Source: an uncultured delta proteobacterium | Lineage (GTDB): Bacteria > Desulfobacterota > Zymogenia > Zymogenales > Zymogenaceae | DNA length: 64,000 bases | Assembly (NCBI GenBank): GCA_963792965.1 | Contig: CAWBYW010000016.1 | Span: forward strand, 96,001-160,000 | Direction: 5' to 3' | Shown here: in pieces, positions 48,543 to 64,000 of the stretch | How positions within the stretch are numbered: position 1 is the stretch's first letter | How the letters are laid out: every line of letters starts with the position of its first letter | The notes under the pieces: model-generated | Database searches by the model: none | Seen by the model: the letters and a program-made list of their open reading frames with translations, nothing else | Told to the model about the DNA's origin: nothing | Translations under genes and position numbers: made by a program

Positions 48543-49265
48543 TCAGCGCCACCCCCACTCGTATTGAACGATCGCGGCCGCCACCAGCGGCGCGGTCTCC
48601 GCCCGAAAAATGAGCCCGCCGAGGCCCGCCACAATAAGGCCGGCCTCCCGTGCGCCGGCGATCTCGGCACCCGAGAAACCGCCCTCCGGGCCGGTGAAAA
48701 GGGAGATCGTGCCGGGGGGGTCCGTCACCTCTCCGATGATCTCCTTTATTCCCCTGGTCTCCTCCTCCGAGAGGATGAGGGAAAGGCCCCCGCGAAGCTC
48801 GACGGCCTCCGAAAAAGCGAGGGGGGAATGCACCTCCAGCGCGCGGTTTCGCCGCGCCAGCCGGGACTCCTCCTCGGCGATCTTCTTCATTCGCGCAAGC
48901 TTCATGTCGCCGATATCACGCACGATCGTCCGTGATGAAACAAAGGGAGTCACCGACGAAACGCCAAGCTCGGCCGCGTCCCGAACGAGGCGCTCCATCT
49001 TTTTCCCCTTCAGAAGCCCGATAAAGAGGTGAACGGCAAGCGAGGCCTCGGGGTGCGGCGGCATCTCTTCAATAACGACGAGCGACACCATCTTCCGTGA
49101 GACGGCCGCCGTCCGCGCCGCGAACTCGTGCCCCCTCTCGTCCACAAGGCAGATCGTATCGCCGACCGAAAGCCTCAACACATCCCTGATATAGTGGGCC
49201 TGCTCGGACGAAGGCATGATCGCCGCCCCCGAGGAGAGCGTCCCCTTAACGAAGAGCCGCTTCAT
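48543..49265 (-). CDS. rsmE: 16S rRNA (uracil1498-N3)-methyltransferase
   Basis: HYIRDVLRL, AELGV, GPEGGFS, LIFRAETA. Confidence 0.92.
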   Translation of the reverse strand: MKRLFVKGTLSSGAAIMPSSEQAHYIRDVLRLSVGDTICLVDERGHEFAARTAAVSRKMVSLVVIEEMPPHPEASLAVHLFIGLLKGKKMERLVRDAAELGVSSVTPFVSSRTIVRDIGDMKLARMKKIAEEESRLARRNRALEVHSPLAFSEAVELRGGLSLILSEEETRGIKEIIGEVTDPPGTISLFTGPEGGFSGAEIAGAREAGLIVAGLGGLIFRAETAPLVAAAIVQYEWGWR

Positions 49266-51240
49266 CTTCTGCCCCGCCTGTTCCCAGCAGCTCGTAAATC
49301 CCCACGGCCTGTTCCTTCCCCTTGACGTTGACCTGGCCCAGATCACGGGTCACGAAATCTCCCGCCTTCTTTAGCGTAAACTCGCTGATGATGATCGTCG
49401 TGCCGAACTCCTTGTTCAGCCCCTCCAGTCGCGAAGCCAGATTGACGCTGTCGCCAATGACGGTATAATCCATCCGTCGCTCCGAGCCGATATTACCGAC
49501 GACCACTTCGCCGCTGTTGATGCCGATGCCGATCTGCATGGGCGGTATCCCCTCCGTCATGAGGCGCTCGTTGACTTTTTTGAGCTCTTGCTTCATGGAC
49601 AGGGCGCAGAGACACGCCTTGCGCGCGTGGTCGGGGGCTTGTTTCGGCGCCCCGAAAAACGCCATGATGGCGTCGCCGACGTATTTGTCGAGGGTTCCGT
49701 CGAATCGGAAGACCACCTCGACCATGGCCTTGAAATAGATATTCAGGCGCCGCACCACTTCCTCGGGGGGGAGCTTCTCGCTCATGGAAGTAAAGCCCCG
49801 GATGTCCGAAAAGAGGATCGAGATATCCCTGCGCTCGCCGCTATCGAGCTTCAGGTCCTCGATGTTCTTGCTGATCTCTTCGGCCACCTGGTGGGAGACA
49901 TACTTCGCGAAGGCTTCCTTGAACTTCTTTTTTGTCCTCCCTTCGGTAACATAGTTGAAGACGAGCGTCGAGACAAAGGAGAGAAATATCGCCGACGTCG
50001 GCGCGATATAGTCCATCATGACCCTCTCCCAGCGAAAGAGGTAGCCGACGATAAGCGTAAAGACGATGAGGATTACGAAAAGCGAGAGGATGCCGTACGC
50101 GGCGGACGAGGCCCTGAGCGAGACCGCCGCCACCAACAGGGAGAGGATGACAATGACCGCCACGCCCTCCGCCCGCGGGAGGCTTTTCACATGGTCGTTA
50201 TTGAGGATATTGTCAAGTGCCGTGGCGTTGAGCTCCACCCCCGGGTAGACCGGCGAAAAGGGGGTCGCCCGCAGGTCGAAGAGCGATACGGCGGTCGTCC
50301 CCACCAGGACGATCCTGCCGGCGAAGGTCTCGGCGGGGATGCGTGGGGGCTGCCCCCTCCGGAGTGCCGCCATCGATTCGATAATGTCGCCGATCGAGTA
50401 GTATTCATAGGTACGGTACGGGCCGTGCCAATTGACGGCCATCCTCCCGTCGGGAGACAGCGGAATGGTAATCGGCCCAGCGAGGAGCGTTCGATTCTTC
50501 GTGATGACGATTGACTCCTTTTTCGGGTCGACTCCAAGGTACTTCAGGGCGGATATGAGACAGAGAGACGGATAATAGCGGCCCTGGTACAGAAAGAGGG
50601 GATAGACGGCGCGCGAGGGCCCGTCGGGGTCGGCCACGAAATTGATGCATCCCGTCCCCGATGAGGCGGCCAACAGCCCGAGGTAAGGCAGCGTGGCCGA
50701 CCGGTATTGTGAAAGGGTGATATCGCTTCTGTTCTCCACCGGGACACTGAAGTGCTCCGCCAGATAGAGGTGCTCCATGAGCGCCTCATAGGTCTCGGTC
50801 CCGGTTTCCGGGCCCGGCAGAAAGACCGTCGAGGTGATGGCCTTCCCGAAACCGGAGGCGGCCCGAGCGAATGCGGCATCGGATGTCGGGTTTTTTATGT
50901 CGGGCTCAGCGAAGATGAGGTCGAAGGCCACCAGCCGCGCCCCGCCGGCTTTCAGGTAGTCCAGCAGTGCCCCAAAGACCTCCCGGGGCCAGGGCCACGT
51001 ACCCAGGTCGTTCCGATAGAAGTTGAGGCTCTCCTCATCGAGCGTGATGATGACGATGCGGTCGTCATGGCGCTTCGGGTCGGAAAAGATCCTGAAGCGG
51101 ACGTCGCCGGTCTTGTTCTCAAGTGAGGTCAACAATCCCCCGAGATGGGCGGACAGGACCACCGCGCTTACCACAGCGCCGATCACTGCACCCATCAGGA
51201 ATCGATAGAGAGCGGGATATGTTTTCCTAATATTCTTCAT
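49246..51240 (-). CDS. CHASE2 class III adenylate cyclase
   Basis: WPWPRE, FDLIFAE (CHASE2), three TMs, FSDIRGFT, DKYVGDAIM, DYTVIGDSVNLASRLE; Lys/Thr specificity residues fit ATP. Confidence 0.94.
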   Translation of the reverse strand: MKNIRKTYPALYRFLMGAVIGAVVSAVVLSAHLGGLLTSLENKTGDVRFRIFSDPKRHDDRIVIITLDEESLNFYRNDLGTWPWPREVFGALLDYLKAGGARLVAFDLIFAEPDIKNPTSDAAFARAASGFGKAITSTVFLPGPETGTETYEALMEHLYLAEHFSVPVENRSDITLSQYRSATLPYLGLLAASSGTGCINFVADPDGPSRAVYPLFLYQGRYYPSLCLISALKYLGVDPKKESIVITKNRTLLAGPITIPLSPDGRMAVNWHGPYRTYEYYSIGDIIESMAALRRGQPPRIPAETFAGRIVLVGTTAVSLFDLRATPFSPVYPGVELNATALDNILNNDHVKSLPRAEGVAVIVILSLLVAAVSLRASSAAYGILSLFVILIVFTLIVGYLFRWERVMMDYIAPTSAIFLSFVSTLVFNYVTEGRTKKKFKEAFAKYVSHQVAEEISKNIEDLKLDSGERRDISILFSDIRGFTSMSEKLPPEEVVRRLNIYFKAMVEVVFRFDGTLDKYVGDAIMAFFGAPKQAPDHARKACLCALSMKQELKKVNERLMTEGIPPMQIGIGINSGEVVVGNIGSERRMDYTVIGDSVNLASRLEGLNKEFGTTIIISEFTLKKAGDFVTRDLGQVNVKGKEQAVGIYELLGTGGAEDEAALR

Positions 51241-53856: not shown

Positions 53857-54504
53857 TCAGGGCAACCGTTCCCCCCGCGTGGACGCCCGGCCCTGCCCCC
53901 CGATAACCTTTACCGCCTCCTCATAGGCCAGCACATACCCCCACCGATTTTTCTCCCTGTCCGTCCGCTCCGAAAGGAGCGCGTCGATCTCGCCGGTGTT
54001 CCGGGTGACGGGCTTGGGTCCCGAAAGGCCCTTTTTCAACGCGTCGATCTCGCCGGCATAGTAGACCGCGAGTCCCTCCGAAAACCAGAGCGGCACGTGG
54101 GTGCCGAAACGAAGCCGGAGAAGCGCGAGACACACCTCATGGGCGACGGTCGACTTCAACACCCCGCGCTCTTTCAGGACGTTCACCGGCTGCAGGTAGA
54201 TCGATCCGTCGATCATCGCCGAGGCCGACCAGAACGGCAGCCTCGTCTGGGCCGTGAAATCTCCGGTCTCCTTGAAGATCACCACGTCGATGGGACGGCC
54301 CGCGCCGCTCCCAACCCTCGTTTCCATCGCGGTGTATGCCGATTCGAGGGCGTCCTTTACCTCCGAGAGCTCGCCGGCCCGAAGGGTCTCGGCGAAATAG
54401 ATATTGAAATGCCGTGTCTGGGTCTGGGCAAAGTCAAGGGCGCCTGCCTCTCGGCTGATGACGAGAAGAAGGCACGAGATCAGAAATAGGAACGGTCTTC
54501 TCAA
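53857..54504 (-). CDS. Exported peptidase MA-like protein with degenerate zinc motif
   Basis: Signal peptide; TVAHEVCLA (HExxH with the second His replaced by Leu) and PLWFSEGLAVY. Confidence 0.75.
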   Translation of the reverse strand: MRRPFLFLISCLLLVISREAGALDFAQTQTRHFNIYFAETLRAGELSEVKDALESAYTAMETRVGSGAGRPIDVVIFKETGDFTAQTRLPFWSASAMIDGSIYLQPVNVLKERGVLKSTVAHEVCLALLRLRFGTHVPLWFSEGLAVYYAGEIDALKKGLSGPKPVTRNTGEIDALLSERTDREKNRWGYVLAYEEAVKVIGGQGRASTRGERLP

Positions 54505-55529
54505 TCCGTATGCACGCCTCCGAAATAGACGCGGAAAACCTCCCGGGCCACCGGCGCGGCATCCTCACCCCCCCGGCCGTGGTAGAGGAAGACGACCACG
54601 GCGATCTCGGGGTTCTCGGCGGGGGCAAAACCCAAGAACCAGGCGTGAGTCGCCCAGCTGGAGCCGAGGAACTCGCCGGTGCCGGTTTTGCCCATAATCT
54701 CGTGCCCGTCCGGCGTCCCCTTGACGGCGGTTCCGTACGCCGCCGCATCGCGCATTCCCTCGGCGAGGATCGGCGCCGCGCGGGAAACCTCTACCTTCCT
54801 GTTGAGTCTCGGCGAAAATGAACCGATATCGTCTGCGGTGGGGGTCACGCGGGGAACCCAGATACTGCCCCCGTTCACGAGGGCCGAAAGATTCACGATC
54901 ACCTGAAGGGGCGTCGCCGTGACGTTGTCGGTGTCTCCGATGACATACTCACGGGCAAACGCCGGCTCGGGGGGGATGAGCCTTCCCGCCTCCTCCTGTG
55001 GAAGGTTGACCCCGGTCTTTTCTCCAAACCCGAGCTCGGAAAGCCCCCGGTAGGTGGTGTCGGCGCCCAGCGTCTCGGCAAGGGAAAGGAAATAGAGATT
55101 ACACGAGTAGGCGATCCCGCGGACAAGGTTGAGATCACCGTGTCCGGGGGGGTACCAGCAATCGTATTTCGTTCCCGATATAACGGCACTCCCGGTACAC
55201 CTGAAGCGAGCGTCGGGAGAGATACGCTTCTCTTCGATCCCTTTCCAGACGCTCACAAGCTTGACGAGCGAGCCGGGGGGAAAGGCCCAGCGTGTCGCCA
55301 TGTCGGGCCCCACCATCGCTCTGATGCGTCCCGTCTTCACGTCCATGACGACGACCGCCCCGGTCCGGCCCGCCAGGGCGTCGGATGCCGCGCTTTCGAG
55401 GAGGGCGTCGCCTTTCAACACCTGTTCCGGGCCCGGCCTGCAACCCGAGGCGAAGAGAAATAAAAGGGCGACCCCCCCGATGAGGGGTCGCCGAAAGAGT
55501 AAACGAATCCGCCGCCGGATCCCCGTCAT
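54501..55529 (-). CDS. Penicillin-binding transpeptidase-domain lipoprotein
   Basis: Lipobox ASGC; SxxK (PGSLVK), SxN (YSCN), KTG (GKTGT), AWFLGFAP. Confidence 0.9.
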   Translation of the reverse strand: MTGIRRRIRLLFRRPLIGGVALLFLFASGCRPGPEQVLKGDALLESAASDALAGRTGAVVVMDVKTGRIRAMVGPDMATRWAFPPGSLVKLVSVWKGIEEKRISPDARFRCTGSAVISGTKYDCWYPPGHGDLNLVRGIAYSCNLYFLSLAETLGADTTYRGLSELGFGEKTGVNLPQEEAGRLIPPEPAFAREYVIGDTDNVTATPLQVIVNLSALVNGGSIWVPRVTPTADDIGSFSPRLNRKVEVSRAAPILAEGMRDAAAYGTAVKGTPDGHEIMGKTGTGEFLGSSWATHAWFLGFAPAENPEIAVVVFLYHGRGGEDAAPVAREVFRVYFGGVHTD

Positions 55530-58500
55530 TTCCCCTCGGTGATGACAAGGCTTGAGCTTCCCGTCCTTCCGAAGCGGTCCGGGAAGTACATCAGGTACGC
55601 CTCGGCCGGCATGACACCGTAGGTCCCCGGGTTTTGGGCGCGGAGGATATACTTGAAGACATAGGTCCCCACGTCGACGTAGTCCATCGATAGAGCGATC
55701 CGCTCATCCCGGAATTCCCTTCCGGCAAACCACCAGTCCGCATCGCCGGTATAGAGATCGTCCCCGGAGATGACATAGTTTTTATCGTCGCTGATGGCCT
55801 CATAGCCCGCCGGGTAGTAGTCCTCCAGCAGGAAGTATTGGGCCTTCTTGTCGGTCGTGACCGAAAGCTCCACGAGGATCTCGTCCCCGCTACTGACCGG
55901 GCCGCTGAGCGGCACCTTCGCGTAGATGAGCTCTCCCTTCTTGGGCACCTTCTTGAGGAGGTAGTACTTTCTGCTCACGGCAAATCCGGCGTTCAGCGGG
56001 GCTATCGAGGGGGCCGCGCTGTAGTGCGTGAAGGTCGAGGAATAGTAGAGGCTACCCGGCCCGTCCTTCTTGATGACGATCGTATTGGGGCCGGTCTTGA
56101 GATCCCCTTCCTTGACGGTAATCGTTCCCCCCTCGGTGAGCATCGTCTCCTTGGTGATGTGGCTCTTCTTGAGCTGTTTGCCGTTGAGGGTAAGCGTCAT
56201 GGTGTAGTTCGGCTTGATCTCCCCGGTCCGGGTGATGTAGTCCGTCAGGGCATAGATGATCTTCCCCGTGGCCTTGGTGGAGCGCCAGTAGCTTCCGGTC
56301 CGGTTGATGATAAGCCAGCGGATCGTCTTGGGGATGAGGGGATTATTGACGTCGCGCATGGCCATCACCCGCAAAACGTACGCGGTGGTCTCCAGGGGAT
56401 CGGCCTCCCAGTCCCACCAATAGAAGTCCTCTCCGACGTAACCCCAGTGAACATAGCCGTTCTCCTGGATCTTTTCCTTCATGAGCAGGTCATACAGGAC
56501 GTTGGCCTTCTCCCGGATCCCCTCGTTCTCGTAGGCCAACAGCAGCATCGCCTGAGAAATGGGGGTGAGCTTGTCGCGCTTCTCGAACATCTCGTCGAGC
56601 CACGCGGTCTTGAGCTTGTCCGTGTAGGACAAGACGTAGAGGGCGTAGACCTTGACGGAGTCCTGATCGATCTTGCTCAGCTGAGAGATGAGGGACGCGG
56701 TGCCGCGCTTGATGACGCCCTCGTCCACGGTGATGGGAATGCCTGCCTCGGGAAGGAGGCGTTTCGCTTCGAGGAGCCCGTACAACACGTAGGCGGTCAT
56801 GTAGGGATCGGTCTCGTCGAACTCGTACCACCCCCAGCCGTTATCGTCGTGCTGCCGTTTGTAGAGCACCATGAGCCCGCTCTTGATGTAGGCGGGGAGG
56901 TCCTTCTCTACGCTCTTATCGGAAAGGTCAAGCTTCTTTAATACCGACGCGACCATGACTGATGGCAAGAACCTTGCCATTACCTGCTCGTTTCACCCAT
57001 AGGGGTAGCCGACGAGGAATGGTATAGCGGCAAGCATTGTGTTGACGAGCGATGGACTGGTGGTAATGGTGAGCTCAGCAGCGTTCTTTATCGTGTTGGC
57101 GGGCTTGTTGACCGTCACCGTGAGCGTCCCGGAGTCCTTGATGATCTCTCCCATATCGTTCTTTGTCTCTTTGATGCCGAGCGGGAGGATCGGCACCTTT
57201 ATCTCCATTCCGTCGGAGACCTCGTTGGTCATCGCCTTTGCCGTGAGAACGGCACTTCCCACGAGGTCCGCCCTGACGTGCCAGTCGACGCGCTTCTCTC
57301 CGTTTTTCGGGACGATTGCATCGACCGGAACGCCGGAAGCGAGCGTCAATCCCTTTGCGTCGAACGTGAAGTGCACCTTCTTGTCGGTCGACAGGTAATT
57401 ATGGGCGATGGTGGAGATTACGAGGTCGTCCCCCTGGCGCAGAAATCGCGGCGCCTCTATGCGGACGAGTAAGTCCTTGCGCTCGATGACCCGGTAGGTA
57501 GTCTCCCCCATGCTGTCGCCCGTGGTCACCCCCCGGACCGTCGCACGCCAACGCGTCAGGTTGTCCGGGAAGGTGACGGTGACCGTGGCCATACCCTTTG
57601 CGTTGGTCGTGATCGTGGGCGACCAGTACATCGTGTCCTTGAAGTCCTTTCGGATCAGCGGTTGAACGAGCGTGTCTCCCTTGAAGTCGGCAAGCTTCGT
57701 CTCTTTTTCCGGAAGTCCCGCCAGGAGTCCTTTCCGGTGAGAGTATCCGTAAAAGCGGAAGTAGAGGGATGACGACGTGTCCACGGAATGATAGCGCAGC
57801 GAGTAGAAATACTTCTGGATTTCGTCGACAAGCTCCGGTGAGATGGCGTAGATGGCGTCGTCCACGACGCCGAGCGACACCTCTGCCGACACGGGTTTGC
57901 CTGTGCTGTCCGTCGTCTTTATCGTAAAGGTGCCCTTTTCTTGCGGCTCGTACGTCGCCTTATTGGAGGTCACCTCGACGTTGATGAACTTTTCGGTCGG
58001 TGGGATGATGATGTTCTTGCTGTCCGAATAGAGCTCATCGTTGAAGATCGCGGCAACCGAGAGGTAGATGTTGGGGGTGTATCTCTCCTTTATGGGGAGA
58101 TCCAGCATCGCCGTGCCACCCGTGGCTTTGATGACTCGGCTATCAAGGATCGAGTCTCCCTCGGTGGTAATCAACAGATAGGTATCCTTCACCGGCGCGG
58201 CGATCAGGATGTGGGCGGTATCGCCCACCGCGTAGGTATCCTTGTCGGGGATAATCGTGACGCCGCCCTCCGACGTCCCGCCGTAGGCATACCCCTCCGT
58301 AAAGGAATACGATGAGTCCTTGGCCGTGGTGGAGTTGCCCGCGTTATCGAAGACCGTGGCGATGAAATTGACGTCGCCCACGTTTTTCACCGTATATTCG
58401 ATGACGGCGTCCCCACCGGAGTTCGTCCTTCCCGAAAGGGTGGCCGAGCTCGTGACCTTGCCCCCCTGCCAGTCGGTCTCCGTGACGATGAGCGTCACCG

Positions 58501-60166
58501 GCACATTCGCCACACCCTTGTTGTCAAAGTCGGAGACGTTGACCGTGATCCGCGCCTTATCCCCCGGCGCGTAGACCCAGCGGTCGGGACGTAGCGAAAC
58601 GGTGTAGTTTGACCGAACGACCTTGACGACGCTGCTGGTGGTAACCACCCGGCGCGAGAGATCGGTAACGTTGGCCTCGATGGTGAAGGTATAGTCGTTG
58701 TCGGGCGACTCAAGGTATTGCGACGTGTCTACCGTGAGCCTGAGCTTCCCGGCGTTGTCGAGCATAGCCGTGCCACTGTCCACCATGACCTTCTCGGTGG
58801 CGGTCCAGTAGTCTTCGTCCATGAAGTACCAGCCCCAGTCGTACCCCCACCACCAGGGGCGCTCGTAGACCGACCGGTAGACCGTATAGTCCACCTTGGC
58901 CTCCGTTACGGGGCTGCCGAAGTAGTAGCCCGCCTCGATATCGGCCGTGATCGTGTCGCCCCGGATGTAGACGTTCTTATCCGTCCTGATCTTGACCTCG
59001 TATTCGGGCTTCTTGTACTCCTCCACCTTGAAGCTGTTGTAGTAGTTCTGTCCATTCAGTCCCACGACGATCTGATATTCGCCGAGCGAGGGCTCCTCTC
59101 CGAGGGTGAAGTCCCCCGAGAGGCTCCCGTACTTATTAATCTTATAGTTGTTCCGGAAGACCTCGTCGCCCTTGGCGTCGTCGATGATGACCAGGTAGTC
59201 GTCGCCGGTGTCGGGAACCTTCAGCCCCGAGTCGGTGGCGTTTCTCAGGATCGAGCGAAAATGCACCGTGTCGCCGGGACGGTAGACGGGTCGGTCGGTG
59301 TAGGTGTAGACCTTGTCGCTTGCTTCCCCTTCCCCGTAGGCATAGGGGTCGGCCAGGGTGAAGTTCTCGCCGTCCTGGGCGAAGACATAGATGACGTCAC
59401 TCTCGGTCGCTTTCACCTTGGAGTAGTAGATCCCGTCGGAGTCCGTCTTCCCCTTGAAGAGGAGTTTTTTCTGGTTGTCGTAGACCGATACCTTAACGCC
59501 TTTCATCGGTTTGCCGGTTACCCGGTCGGCCACGTAGATAAGGCTGTCGGTGCTCGAGTTCTTCACGACAAACGACATGGGGGTAACGACGACCATCGTA
59601 TAGGCCACCGAATCCTCAAAGACCGCCTCGACGAGGTAGCACCCCGGTTTCGGGACTTTGACGTCTATGTTGTGGTACTCCCACTGTCCACTGCCCGAGA
59701 TGACCAACTTCTCCTGCCAGCGGTTGAGGAGCTTGAACTGGGTCAGGATCGGGAAGAGCTCGTAGGTCTGTGGCGCGGGTGAGACGGGCTCCTGGGCGTG
59801 CGGCAGGCCGAGTGCCGAGACGACATCGTCTCGGATGTTGTCGGAGAGTTTTGAGCGATAGTCGTCCCGGAAGAGTTCTACCCCCTTCCGTTTGATCGCC
59901 CCAACCATCTCGGCGGGGGCCGATGTCCCCCGTTTCGTCGTCACCACCGGCGAGTGGACGTCATCGAGCCCGAGGAAGTACGATTTCGGATCGTCTACCC
60001 GGTAGAGCCGGATATCGAGGGACGGGACATCCATGGAGGAAACGGTGACGGTGACGGGCTCCCCCGGAGCGAAGATCTTGTCCGTGGAGAGCTCAAAGGA
60101 GCCTGCGAGCGTCACGGCCGGCAGTGTTAAGAGCAATACGATCGAAAGAATAAGGGACTTTTTCAT
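55526..60166 (-). CDS. Alpha-2-macroglobulin, 1546 aa, with in-frame UGA (putative Sec1058) in the thioester motif
   Basis: Signal peptide; YTDRPVYRPG, EEYKKPEY, SLGVVDDA, RKDFKDT.YW, PDNLTRW, YPYG-TGA-NEQ, QHDDNGWGW, YWRSTKAT. ORFs 56993-60178 and 55526-56980 are in the same frame, separated only by TGA AAC GAG CAG GTA. Confidence 0.9.
56962..56980 (-). promoter_or_regulatory. Putative bacterial SECIS hairpin
   Basis: mRNA UGA-AACGAGCAGGUA-AUGGCAAG-GUU-CUUGCCAU: a perfect 8-bp stem begins 12 nt after UGA; its apical AGGUUCU resembles the E. coli fdhF SECIS loop AGGUCU. Confidence 0.72.
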
Positions 60167-60409
60167 AGTTTCCCTCAAAGAATGGAGTATATCGTTGTTT
60201 GGTCTGTCACCGTGAGAGTGCGCGGCGACCGCGGCAATCCCCGGCTGTCGTTACCGATACGGAGGTAATAAGGATCCTTCCTCGAGAATCAGGGCTCGCC
60301 TCGTTGTGCCACATCGCCTGGCCTCCCACGATTCGGGCAGGAACGTTCCCCTGCAATGACCGAGAAGAGCTCCCACGATACTTTGGACCTCAAAAGCACC
60401 TATAAAGCT

Positions 60410-61507
60410 TTAGTTCAGTATCTTGAACCGATAATAACCCAAAAAATGGTCGTTCTCTCTTACCGGCCGCCAGCGCTCGTCCGGATGCACTTTGAGCGTG
60501 GCGAGCCTGACCTTCCTCACGTCCCCGTTATCGTGGGAGCGCGGGCCGGTGTGATAGACGAGCCAATCTTCGTTTACGTCCGAATCGCTCTCCTTTCCCC
60601 ACTCGCCGAGGTAGATCATCATATGGGAGGGCATCCGGGGGTTTTCCGGGTTGAAGAAAAAGAGGAGATCACCGGGAAGAATACCCTTCTCGGTTCGCCC
60701 GAGGAACACGACGTTGTACTGAAGCAGCGCCTCGGCCGATGCCGCCGCAGAAAAGTTGACGCCGATATCGGAAGGGACAAACGGCCCCGGCGCCGTCCGA
60801 AAGACATCGACTCCCAGCAGCGGCACGTGGGGATAGGTGTACTTCTTCACGTCGGGATTTGCGGGGCTGACCAGCGTCGCGTAGGAGGAAAAGAAAGCGT
60901 CGTCGTGGCGCTTGAGCGCCTCGACATAGGCAAAACGCACAAGCCCCGCACAGTCCCGGTTGATCTGGTCCCAGTGGCGGTTCTTCTCGTAGACTTGAGA
61001 TTCCGCGATGGCGCAGAGCCACCGCCGGAAGTTGAGGCGGTCTGTGTCGCCGAAGAGCTCCACCACATCGGGAAACCCGTCCCCGTCCCGGTCACGCATG
61101 TCGGGGATAACATTCACCTGTGCCCGGGCAGGCGCCACCCCCGGAGACTCGGCCCGGATCGTGAGGTCACCCGTCTCGAAGGTCGAGATGAGCGTGAGGG
61201 AGGCCGTTCCGCGGACAAACGCGAGCGGTCCTGTTTCCACCCTTGTCGTCGCCGGGCCGACAAGCGTCACCGTAAGGGGTGCGCCGCAGCCGCGCGCAAC
61301 ATTCCCCCTGTCGGTCTTTGCAAGGATCGTGATCTCCACGGTATCTTCCTTGTTGGCCCAGAGCGTCTGCTTTGACACGGCGATCTCGATGCTTTTGGCC
61401 TTTGCGCACGACGTGATCAAACAGGCCAACAGGAGCGTCGAAAGGATCGCCGCTCCGCCTTTAATCCAGGTCCTTGACCCTGATCTTAAACCCGCCTTGA
61501 ATTGCAT
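60410..61507 (-). CDS. DUF1175 (YfaT-like) lipoprotein with N-terminal Ig-like domain
   Basis: Lipobox LITSC, Ig-like region, DRDGDGFPD, FRRW..IAE.Q, RDCAGLVRFAY, PGDLLFF, HMMIY, YHTG, W.P...N.HFLG.YR; exact start uncertain. Confidence 0.85.
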   Translation of the reverse strand: MQFKAGLRSGSRTWIKGGAAILSTLLLACLITSCAKAKSIEIAVSKQTLWANKEDTVEITILAKTDRGNVARGCGAPLTVTLVGPATTRVETGPLAFVRGTASLTLISTFETGDLTIRAESPGVAPARAQVNVIPDMRDRDGDGFPDVVELFGDTDRLNFRRWLCAIAESQVYEKNRHWDQINRDCAGLVRFAYVEALKRHDDAFFSSYATLVSPANPDVKKYTYPHVPLLGVDVFRTAPGPFVPSDIGVNFSAAASAEALLQYNVVFLGRTEKGILPGDLLFFFNPENPRMPSHMMIYLGEWGKESDSDVNEDWLVYHTGPRSHDNGDVRKVRLATLKVHPDERWRPVRENDHFLGYYRFKILN

Positions 61508-63204
61508 CACCGCTGAAGTTGACCCCCCCGTAGCATGAGACAAAAGATCTTCTGGTCAGTTCCACGAGCGGCACGAGCCGCTTTTCCGAATCCTGGTAGA
61601 GAAAGTATTTATAGTTTGCCGAGATGTTGACGAGATAACCCTCGATCAACGACATGGCGTTGTTCCCGTCTACGTAGAGATAGAGGTCGTAGGCGTCTTT
61701 CGGCATGTCTTTTTGCGCCGAGATGAACGCGGGCGACTTCACGAGAAAATCGCGGTCAAAAAGGCCGCCCGCCCCCGTCATCGAGGAAATAACAGAGAGG
61801 TCGTTGAGCTGCTCCATCGTCGAAAGGTCCCAGAAGAGGAAGAGCCTGTCATCCTTGAGCGCAAAACCAGGATTAGGCTTGACGGAGGCGACGTACGACG
61901 TCCCGTTCCAATCGAGGCTCTTTTCCCTGAACTGGCCCATATAGGAGATGTGAGCGGCGTCAAGCTCGAGGGGAGACGGGCCCGCATCTGAAGAATGAAT
62001 AGCTGTAGAGCTTGCCGATATTGGTGGAAAGGGCCTCTTCTTTGCCCGGTGCCACCCCAACGGAGGCGATCGTCCTGAGGTACGGTTTTTCTCCCTCATA
62101 CCCGATCCCGACGAGGGCCGCCAGCGCCCCCCTGCCGAGGTTGTTGATGATTCCACCCTCCAGGTCGAATCCGCCCTTGTCCTTCCATTTTTTCAGGATC
62201 GAGATGTAGTTTACCTTTTGGGCGATGTCGGTAAACCAGACCTTCCCGAAATGGGTATAAAGGATGCCGGGGTCGAAGGCCCGAAACGCCACGAGCGCCG
62301 CCGTCTCGCCGGGCATCGCCGATAGGTCTATTGTCGCCTTATCGGAGAGCGACCCCAGCCCCGCCAGGAGGCTTTTCCCCTCGCCCCCGGTGTAGGGGGC
62401 AAAGAGCGTGATATCCGCGCCGGCCTCGGAAAAGGTGACCGAGAAAAGGAGCGCGTCCGTCCCCTTGAGAAGCCGTCTGGCATGGGCGACGATGCCCATC
62501 TCGGAGTCATCGGGGCTCATCGCCTTCGTTGAATAGAAAAGGATATGGTAGTCCTTTGGCAGGTGGGAGAGCCGATCCATGACGGCGGGGTTTCCGGAGA
62601 GGTTCTTTGGGTTTTGCCCCGTAACGATGTCCCACTCGGATTTGAAGAGATCGGGGGAGTCGGAGACGATCGTATAGCCTTTGACGTTCTTGTAATAGAT
62701 CTTCTTGTCTGTGCTCGCGACAACCCAGACGGAATAGGAGCCCCAGTTTTCCTTCGTCACGTGGCTCGAAAAGATCGAAAAGAGGTTGATGAGAAAACCC
62801 TTAAACCAGCCCGTCTCAAGCAGCGCCGCCGAGGCCTCCTTTCCCTCGAGGGTCGTCCGATAGAAGACGGCCCGCGCACCTATGACCCACAGGAAGCGTT
62901 TCAGGGTCGGGCGAATCCCGGTCATCTTCTCGATAGTCCCGAGCCTGGAGAGCATCGGGGCCGAGAGGTCGCTCTTGATCGGGCCCTCAAAGAGCGAAAG
63001 ATCGCCGACTTCATCAAAATAATCGCTTGAGAGCAACGGCCTCAATCCTGCCCTGAGGTCCCTGAGGTAGACGAAGGAGTCTACGTTCTCCGGGATGATC
63101 TGATAGAGCTCGTAGGCGTCTCCGGCCACGGCACTAAGGGCCCCAAGCGAAAGGGCCGCGATAACGACCGCGCCGATCAGACATGCCCTGATCTTAGATC
63201 TCAT
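61461..63204 (-). CDS. Exported hypothetical protein (positionally YfaA/DUF2138-like); frameshift near 61985
   Basis: Signal peptide MRSKIRACLIGAVVIAALSLGALSAVA; ORFs 61960-63246 and 61461-62156 join; sits just upstream of the DUF1175 and A2M genes. Confidence 0.65.
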
Positions 63205-63223
63205 GAATCCCTCCTTTTCTCCG

Positions 63224-63817
63224 CTATCGGCCGATGGGGCCCGCAAATGACTCGGGATCGGCCCCCGCCCGGAGGATCGTATTGTAGTACCTCAGCGTGA
63301 CGATGTGAATCACCCGCTCGCGCATAGTATCGGGGGTCGCCTTCATGAGAGCGGGGAGGTCCTTGTAGAAATCCTTCAGCGACTCGTTCACGTCGCTCTT
63401 CATCTCGGGCGTCGGCGCGCCGGCACGACCGAGGCCCGGAGGTTCTTGTATTCGTCCCACTCGGCGTCAAGGATGACGTCCAGCGCGTCTCCCACGGCAC
63501 CTGTGTCCGTCCCGCCGGGCTGGCTGTAGTCCGTACCCGACGGCGTCTCGGAGACCGTGGGAGGCACAAGCATCCTGGTCCCGGGCGGCGGCGATCATCT
63601 CCCACTCGTGGCGAGGGACGTCCGGATCTCGCTTTTGCGGCTTGGGATAGCCCGCCTTGATCTGATCGATCGCAAGGGTAACGTCGGCAAAGACCCCCCC
63701 GACCTTCGGACCCTTCTCTCCGGGCGCGGGCGCCTTTTTTTCGCAGGCCCACGAGAAGATCAAGAGAAACGAGAGGAGCCCAAGAATCGGCCAGAGCAGT
63801 CCCGGTCGGGCGCTCAG
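63224..63817 (-). CDS. Hypothetical lipoprotein, two frameshifts, start uncertain
   Basis: Hydrophobic leader with FSWAC lipobox; fragments rejoin as ...DVILDAEWDEYKNLR...MKSDVNESLKDFY...PIGR*. Confidence 0.55.
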
Positions 63818-63835
63818 TCCGTCCCGCCGTTTCCG

Positions 63836-64000
63836 TCAGGATCGGCCGAGCGCCGAGAGGATCTCGGCCAGCGCCCGATCCGAGCGATACGTATTGGTCT
63901 TGATGTTCCATCCCTTCTCCTTCAAACCGATTAAGAGCTGGGTAACCTCGGGCAGAAACGGCCTCACGCCGTCGAGCGCCGCCCGGTCGGAAAAGAGTTC
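63836..64000 (-). CDS. 3' end of a probable ECF-transporter ATPase (partial)
   Basis: ELFSDRAALDGVRPFLPEVTQLLIGLKEKGW...LAEILSALGRS* resembles the EcfA C-terminal tail. Confidence 0.5.
   Translation of the reverse strand, partial: ELFSDRAALDGVRPFLPEVTQLLIGLKEKGWNIKTNTYRSDRALAEILSALGRS

Follow-up and report, generated by a model that had tools for sequence, protein, structure and literature searches.

The DNA considered here, referred to below as the window, is a stretch of 64,000 nucleotides (nt) from contig CAWBYW010000016.1 (positions 96,001 to 160,000) of an uncultured member of Candidatus Zymogenaceae (assembly GCA_963792965.1, labelled G000; 42 contigs, 88.85% complete), and all coordinates are window positions. 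Its minus strand carries a gene for a bacterial alpha-2-macroglobulin (A2M), a type of protease trap in which a cysteine and a glutamine residue form a reactive thioester. The codon expected to specify this cysteine is an in-frame TGA, a candidate selenocysteine (Sec, U) codon, and the minus strand at the site reads GGC TAC CCC TAT GGG TGA AAC GAG CAG GTA ATG GCA AGG TTC. The features of the locus are collected in Table 1.

The open reading frame (ORF) list contains two A2M ORFs, 56993..60178 (1061 aa, counted from an upstream TTG) and 55526..56980 (484 aa), and gene callers yield exactly these two proteins, as the original prediction had expected of standard pipelines. It had also claimed that the two ORFs share one frame without a frameshift, and that the TGA at codon 1058 of 1546 is the sole internal stop. 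Both statements hold: when TGA is translated as U, one continuous, uninterrupted A2M protein is obtained, the count from the ATG at 60166 is the same, and the frame holds no further TGA except its terminator. Pfam domains are found on both sides of the internal TGA (bMG3, MG2, bMG5, A2M_BRD, A2M, TED_complement, and bMG10), and they make up a complete bacterial A2M architecture. The characteristic Cys-x-Glu-Gln motif is not present as written; the Glu and the Gln are there, while the Cys codon is TGA. Judged by its sequence, the gene is a member of the A2M fold family and a variant in its warhead (U-N-E-Q). No family for this A2M was found in NCBIfam. The N-terminus (MKKSLILSIVLLLTLPAVTLAGS), inspected by eye, contains no Cys and hence no lipobox.

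Table 1. Coordinates of the A2M gene, of the elements at its internal TGA, and of the adjoining genes.
Feature	Position	Strand	Description
A2M coding frame	55526..60166	(-)	1546 codons, from ATG 60166 to terminator TGA 55526-55528; one internal TGA
In-frame TGA at thioester Cys position	56993..56995	(-)	codon 1058; predicted to be read as Sec in GYPYG-U-NEQ
CAG, Gln of U-N-E-Q (Q1061)	56984..56986	(-)	acyl partner of the thioester in Cys-type A2Ms
Frozen block, candidate bacterial SECIS	56960..56992	(-)	33 nt, directly 3' of the TGA
Hairpin	56962..56980	(-)	8-bp stem (AUGGCAAG / CUUGCCAU), GUU loop; encoded by M-A-R-F-L-P
TED_complement	56696..57031	(-)	holds U-N-E-Q; Pfam E 3.4e-13, profile positions 17-121 of 312
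Bait-region domain A2M_BRD	57845..58258	(-)	Pfam E 7.1e-23
bMG10, downstream of the TGA	55577..55987	(-)	Pfam E 7.1e-29
Probable type-I signal peptide	60104..60166	(-)	MKKSLILSIVLLLTLPAVTLA followed by G; judged by eye from the translation
Penicillin-binding-protein transpeptidase gene	54501..55529	(-)	342 aa; PF00905 E 3.1e-46
DUF1175 gene, directly upstream of A2M	60410..61543	(-)	PF06672 E 5.4e-61

Two 151-nt contigs from a public short-read run (X1), covering 56854-57004 and 56992-57142, show 0 differences from the window and give TGA, not TGC or TGT, at 56993-56995. The run is possibly the source sample of the genome, and it checks the assembly rather than an independent organism. Among the differences listed for three runs from relatives (X2, X3, and X6, less than 95% alike), a listing that is incomplete and from which no conclusion is drawn, none falls at 56993-56995 or in the hairpin described below. 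Relatives were found in a set of 10 species genomes of the family, belonging to five genera, all of which (10/10) have an A2M orthologue. The codon is TGA in eight of these genomes (G000, G001, and G004-G009), which span four of the five genera, and a Cys codon in the other two (TGT in G002, TGC in G003). Homologues with TGA at the same codon were also found in divergent metagenomic A2M clades, described below. G001, G004, and G006 have full-length A2M frames of 1557-1573 aa, each with exactly one TGA; the assemblies of G005, G007, and G009 are rich in frameshifts, yet have TGA at the same codon. In G008 the A2M is distributed over two contigs, one (C543:3-3167) stopping at the residue before the TGA and the other (C232:7-1830) holding the TGA, which reflects either a contig break or two copies.

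The residues following the site are conserved as well. NEQ is kept in 8/8 TGA-type and 2/2 Cys-type orthologues of the family, and the YPYG context is kept together with the Glu and Gln of x-E-Q in all eight of the TGA-type. Between G000 and three TGA-type orthologues the ratio of nonsynonymous to synonymous substitution rates (dN/dS) is 0.14-0.22 on the upstream side of the TGA and 0.13-0.19 on the downstream side, with dS between TGA-type orthologues at 1.3-2.2 and thus saturated. The low dN/dS on both sides indicates that both halves of the gene are maintained as coding in this frame. A sequencing or assembly error, or a pseudogene, could be suspected since the assembly has indel errors, selA being spread over three frames. 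However, eight genomes assembled independently of one another share this TGA, as do dozens of contigs from metagenomes, the short-read contigs agree with it, and the sequence downstream is under the constraint just mentioned. An error or a decayed gene is thereby effectively refuted, and on these comparisons the in-frame TGA is not an assembly error.

A hairpin resembling a bacterial selenocysteine insertion sequence (SECIS) had been described next to the TGA in the original prediction. It was found, with its first paired base 12 nt after the UGA; in the minimal SECIS of Escherichia coli fdhF this distance is 11 nt, and the loop contains G and U. Directly behind the TGA, 8/8 TGA-type genomes share the same 32 nt, while synonymous differences occur in the flanks. 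In 11 distinct TGA-type sequences, comprising the family genomes and the metagenome relatives of the focal clade, one of the 33 columns from +3 to +35 is variable, whereas in the flanking windows 10-30 of 33 vary. Each of the codons +1 to +10 (N E Q V M A R F L P) is the same in all 11 sequences, including those of the degenerate residues V, A, R, L, and P (GTA, GCA, AGG, TTG, and CCA), despite the saturated dS, whereas P, L, A, V, G, and S residues that are invariant at other sites use 2-5 codons. The same hairpin is present in all eight TGA-type family orthologues and is not formed in the two Cys orthologues. These read V-M-S-R-F-L-P, use GC-rich codons (GTG, TCG, CGC/CGG, CTG, and CCG), and differ mutually at 3/11 third positions in the hairpin window. 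The constraint on the hairpin thus appears to be released where the UGA is lost, as would be predicted for a SECIS.

The genome also encodes the Sec machinery that such decoding would need, with selA, selB, selC, and selD all found. ARAGORN identified one tRNA-Sec (contig 25), which is the sole tRNA with anticodon UCA among the 49 found in G000, and SelB is present. The SelD gene (C7:544093) has an in-frame TGA of its own near the N-terminus, followed by a GC-rich hairpin; SelD would itself be a selenoprotein, so that Sec synthesis depends on selenium in a feed-forward manner. selA is found at C16:161118-162159, about 1.1-2.2 kb past the end of the window, in three frames and with TAA and TAG inside the matches. 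It is intact in 8/9 other family genomes and in two pieces in G005, and the breaks in G000 are probably assembly indel errors rather than signs of a dead gene. This fits the earlier claim that the other errors of this assembly are indels.

Within the family, SelA is found in 10/10 genomes, SelB in 9/10 (not found in G002, which is 89% complete), and a tRNA-Sec scoring >70 bits in 8/10 (not in the fragmented G001 and G008). selA is located 4-7 kb from the A2M gene in seven of the ten genomes (G000, G001, G002, G003, G005, G007, and G009), among them both Cys-type genomes; the two genes are on different contigs in G004 and G006, and G008 carries selA on a third contig. The proximity may be plain synteny or may reflect a functional link.

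Among 401 sampled genomes of the phylum, 52 had a match to the thioester domain (TED); a stop inside this match was found only in the family, and the other 42 had none. A scan of metagenomes for the pattern Y-P-Y-G-TGA-x-E-Q gave 96 stretches, 80 of which were listed as loci. Of these, 37 are A2M homologues according to tblastn (21-84% identity to the present protein) in which the TGA falls in frame on the thioester codon, and six unlisted stretches also resemble A2M sites. The other 43 listed loci have no A2M match and were discarded as chance hits. After the site the divergent clades read T-E-Q-T-L-A-K-F, I-E-Q-T-S-S-G-T-R, I-E-Q-I-M-G-Q-F, V-E-Q-V-M-G-K-F, or T-E-Q-T-M-G-K-V. In at least 10 metagenome contigs the TGA is flanked on either side by a long open frame (e.g., 1477+483, 1129+483, and 1106+457 codons). 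These comparisons indicate that UGA at the thioester codon is a recurrent feature of environmental bacterial A2Ms and extends beyond one odd gene.

Several of the clades have a hairpin of their own 12-17 nt after the UGA, with different arms (GGGACG/CGUCCC, GGCAGG/CCUGCC, UGGGCAA/UUGCCCA, UGGCCAA/UUGGCCG, and CCUCGU/ACGAGG) and G/U-rich loops. A single consensus pairing model for all clades was rejected, as the hairpins sit in different registers. The folding energy of nt +9 to +48 has a median of -9.8 kcal/mol for Sec forms (n=45) and -7.5 kcal/mol for Cys forms (n=21; Mann-Whitney p = 0.0024), which is weak evidence as the rows are related and the Sec set included three non-A2M chance matches (L079, L113, and L151). 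In seven further Sec clades the window at the TGA has 0-3/11 variable third positions and the flanks mostly 4-10; since the clade definitions fixed the peptide and Cys controls dip as well, this test is decisive for the focal clade only and suggestive elsewhere.

Independently of the scan pattern, traces of such genes are found in the protein databases. 'C-terminal halves' from the focal clade are 476-486 aa long and start at MARFLPSV or at the next Met. Those of another clade are 440-483 aa long, some of them on contigs of 44-136 kb, and start with MTRPLL, MSSTRPLL, or V-E-Q-T; named Cys relatives of this clade come from metagenome-assembled genomes of Myxococcota, which is the sole taxonomic hint for the divergent clades. 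Among them are many A2M entries of 464-479 aa (P0057, P0068, P0071, P0101, P0103, P0106-P0108, P0116, P0117, P0119-P0121, P0130, P0131, P0133-P0135, P0142, and P0143), which begin a few residues past the thioester position and thus resemble the C-terminal parts of selenoprotein A2Ms that gene callers have cut in two. Dozens of public A2M entries that appear as a C-terminal or an N-terminal half are probably single selenoproteins split at the UGA. Among the 120 matches listed for relatives in the full-length range, 119 carry the motif with Cys (P0009, P0015, and P0157 are database proteins of the Cys form); the remaining one, without the motif, is the N-terminal piece from the window itself, and an annotated U occurs in none of those listed.

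The relationship between Sec and Cys forms was analyzed with an unrooted FastTree phylogeny of the 330 residues after the site (122 rows, 41 Sec and 81 Cys). The way in which the rows were found biases the sample, and the tree contains several long branches. At least 14 changes of state are required, and well-supported branches force eight of them. In the focal clade, with 11 Sec and 4 Cys forms, every Cys form is nested among Sec forms, and the hairpin is identical in all Sec forms. This nesting, together with the one identical hairpin, is most simply explained if Sec is ancestral in the focal clade and has repeatedly been replaced by Cys, although the tree is unrooted. Exchange between Sec and Cys is typical of selenoproteins.

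Taken as a whole, the sequence evidence makes it very probable that UGA codon 1058 is decoded as Sec. SelB and tRNA-Sec would decode the codon, directed by the hairpin 12 nt downstream, and selenium would thereby replace the sulfur of the thioester Cys in GYPYG-U-NEQ. The A2M would be exported, as the putative signal peptide suggests, and then fold. In the way established for the Cys of A2M, complement C3, and the E. coli A2M (ECAM), the selenolate of U1058 would then attack the side-chain amide of Q1061 with release of ammonia, and the product would be a buried gamma-glutamyl selenoester. When an attacking protease cuts the bait region the selenoester would become exposed and acylate a lysine of the protease, which would thus be trapped covalently. 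Amines are acylated more readily by selenoesters than by thioesters, and this should give faster capture and better competition with hydrolysis.

That such a Sec-Gln warhead is formed and used seems fairly likely; this part of the proposal is drawn from the retained Gln, the TED fold, and small-molecule chemistry. The acyl-selenoenzyme of selenosubtilisin strongly favours aminolysis over hydrolysis. Aminolysis of a phenyl selenoester has been reported to run at about six times the rate seen with an activated p-nitrophenyl thioester, whereas the efficiency of the plain phenyl thioester was considered insufficient (PMC7232547).

The closest bacterial counterparts with known structures are ECAM (YfhM) and the Salmonella A2M (4ziq, 5a42, 4rtd, and 4u48), which the present protein matches in sequence with E-values of 9e-20 to 1.5e-16. 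They share the macroglobulin (MG) domains, the bait region, the TED, MG10, and the Y-P-Y-G-x-x-E-Q context, as well as an adjoining gene for a penicillin-binding protein (PBP) and a presumed role in periplasmic protease trapping. In contrast to ECAM, the reactive residue here is encoded by UGA (Sec) instead of a Cys codon, the signal peptide appears, by eye, to be a plain one instead of that of a lipobox lipoprotein, and the neighbouring PBP is a class B-like transpeptidase only, and so differs from PBP1c. The best sequence matches in the PDB are eukaryotic thioester proteins (CD109, E 7e-27; human A2M, E 2e-24; TEP1, E 3e-22). Human A2M, CD109, complement C3/C4, and insect TEP1 follow the same Cys-x-Glu-Gln warhead logic, all with Cys.

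With FdhF and SelD the A2M shares a UGA at the position of a catalytic Cys, homologues with Cys, and a hairpin at a fixed short distance downstream, and by analogy it would likewise depend on selA, selB, selC, and selD. The classical selenoproteins are, according to abstracts of the literature, overwhelmingly redox enzymes; here, Sec would instead be part of an acyl-transfer warhead. The A2M also differs from them in being a large protein, predicted to be exported by a signal peptide that is not of the twin-arginine type. Selenosubtilisin and synthetic peptide selenoesters are likewise acyl donors favouring amines, but these are man-made, while the selenoester of the A2M, if formed, would be natural and encoded.

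Several observations weigh against this interpretation. That the A2M polypeptide contains Sec is predicted from sequence comparison. As a single sequence, the 76 nt after the TGA fold in an ordinary way compared with shuffled versions (z = -0.65), so that the significance of the hairpin comes from the comparison with relatives and not from folding energy. In the divergent clades the retention of E-Q follows by construction, as the scan pattern imposed both the TGA and x-E-Q. When pairing was scored in a fixed register over 38 distinct TGA-type sequences, 66.2% of the cells were paired, compared with 59.6% in shuffles and 61.8% when the partners were slid by -3, so that a single register has modest support. 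With a strict definition of the hairpin (at least 5 contiguous pairs, starting at nt 12-20), it was found in 9/20 Sec clades and in 5/17 Cys clades, and four Cys control clades show a milder third-position dip too. A SECIS is thus not evident in about half of the divergent clades, and singletons among them could be errors or pseudogenes. As to the chemistry, forming a Sec-Gln selenoester is thermodynamically less favourable than forming a thioester, and the selenoester is lost to hydrolysis more easily. The rates quoted above from PMC7232547 were for aryl esters in DMSO (dimethyl sulfoxide), not for an alkyl selenoester in a protein, and serve as an analogy only.

Two further points of this kind lead to alternative explanations of the UGA itself. 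No SECIS family was matched when Rfam was searched with 56850-57050 at a permissive threshold, the one match being to an unrelated small RNA at chance level (E 6.7). The bacterial SECIS models in Rfam are gene-specific, and this null result is consequently taken as uninformative. Together with the fact that a hairpin alone is no proof of SelB binding, it would fit a UGA that is read through without selenium, with Cys, Trp, or Gly inserted by a near-cognate or mis-charged tRNA and the hairpin stimulating the process. This is considered extremely improbable. Anticodon UCA was found in no tRNA other than tRNA-Sec. TGA is also the stop codon of the gene itself, which ends there just where its orthologues do, so the codon has not been reassigned genome-wide; moreover, Sec/Cys pairs, hairpin spacing, and machinery together make up the classical signature of a selenoprotein.

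The second point is the AUG located 12 nt after the UGA, which makes termination followed by reinitiation conceivable. The gene would then be a split one giving a piece of 1057 aa and a 484-aa TED-MG10 piece without the thioester residue, with the hairpin serving coupling or regulation, and these are also the two proteins output by gene callers. Against such a split stands that the stop hits the one catalytic Cys codon, and does so in many clades, several of which have no AUG after the site (T-E-Q-T-L-A-K-F and I-E-Q-T-S-S-G). In addition, the codons for N-E-Q, which lie between the stop and this AUG, persist in 8/8 TGA-type family orthologues, the Cys orthologues are single polypeptides, and the genome has a full Sec machinery. 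A split gene is therefore regarded as very improbable, and decoding of the UGA as Sec is the preferred explanation.

If Sec is inserted, it might still not form a stable selenoester. The residue could be a free selenol or form a transient adduct, with another role such as redox sensing, binding of metal or sulfide, or formation of a selenenylsulfide, or trapping could be non-covalent, as in the thioester-less bacterial A2Ms. All evidence for Sec decoding fits this equally well, selenoesters are in general more labile than thioesters, and the known bacterial selenoproteins are mostly redox proteins, as far as abstracts describe them. However, x-E-Q and YPYG, which make and shield the thioester, are kept in 8/8 TGA-type orthologues, and Sec and Cys interchange within the clade while the motif is otherwise unchanged, suggesting that they do the same job. 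Nor does the translation of the A2M frame show a partner Cys of the redox-motif kind beside the Sec. A Sec residue without a stable selenoester is accordingly judged unlikely, and the selenoester warhead remains the favoured outcome of Sec insertion. The broadest version of the proposal is that there exists a set of environmental A2Ms, spanning the Zymogenaceae, Myxococcota-like, and other clades, with a SECIS-directed Sec-Gln warhead that outpaces its sulfur counterpart in acylating the amines of proteases and discriminates better against water. This is narrowly favoured.

The start of the PBP gene overlaps the A2M stop (ATGA), and the two genes are therefore probably co-transcribed. Pairing of A2M with PBP1c is known in bacteria, and the overlapping PBP gene echoes this pairing. 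The 342-aa PBP ORF resembles PBP2 models in their C-terminal part, with scores under the cut-offs, and domain searches of this ORF found no transglycosylase or dimerisation domain. The DUF1175 gene on the other side is of a family known from the thioester-less yfaS/mag-type A2M operon, and the locus may thus mix features of both types of bacterial A2M operon. Upstream, three more ORFs on the same strand (61461-63911 (-)) had no match in Pfam or NCBIfam. The next ORF downstream of the PBP gene (53857-54504 (-), 215 aa) has a weak match, far below the cut-off, to a flagellinolysin HExxH metalloprotease (E 2.5e-4); a protease beside a protease trap would be of interest if this unproven match were true. 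Further away, 49246-51240 (-) encodes a 664-aa protein in which a CHASE2 sensor is fused to an adenylate/guanylate cyclase domain.

According to the original prediction, no selenoester A2M is known to have been characterised, and none was found in the literature searched. Full-text searches returned no Sec-type A2M or thioester protein; supplementary tables of surveys, which lie outside such searches, may list one. Macroglobulin, thioester, A2M, and protease are absent from the main text of both a 2026 review of the prokaryotic selenoproteome (PMC13188914) and the deep-Sep paper (PMC12013277). The trap is known and so is the recoding system, while their combination, and the chemistry it implies, is undescribed in the searched literature.

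If the proposal is true, these A2Ms would provide the first instance of Sec serving acyl transfer, instead of redox chemistry, in an exported defence protein, and the class would have been overlooked because gene callers cut such genes in two. For selenium biology this would mean a large, exported family of selenoproteins that are not oxidoreductases, which bears on why cells pay for Sec; the advantage of Sec would here lie in its chemistry as leaving group and nucleophile, not in resistance to over-oxidation. In protein chemistry, an encoded selenoester that forms by itself would be nature's equivalent of the selenoesters that chemists employ in ligation. For the biology of A2M, complement, and the thioester-containing proteins, the close Sec and Cys forms within one family would constitute a natural experiment, in which direct comparison can show how reactive such a trap is with either residue.

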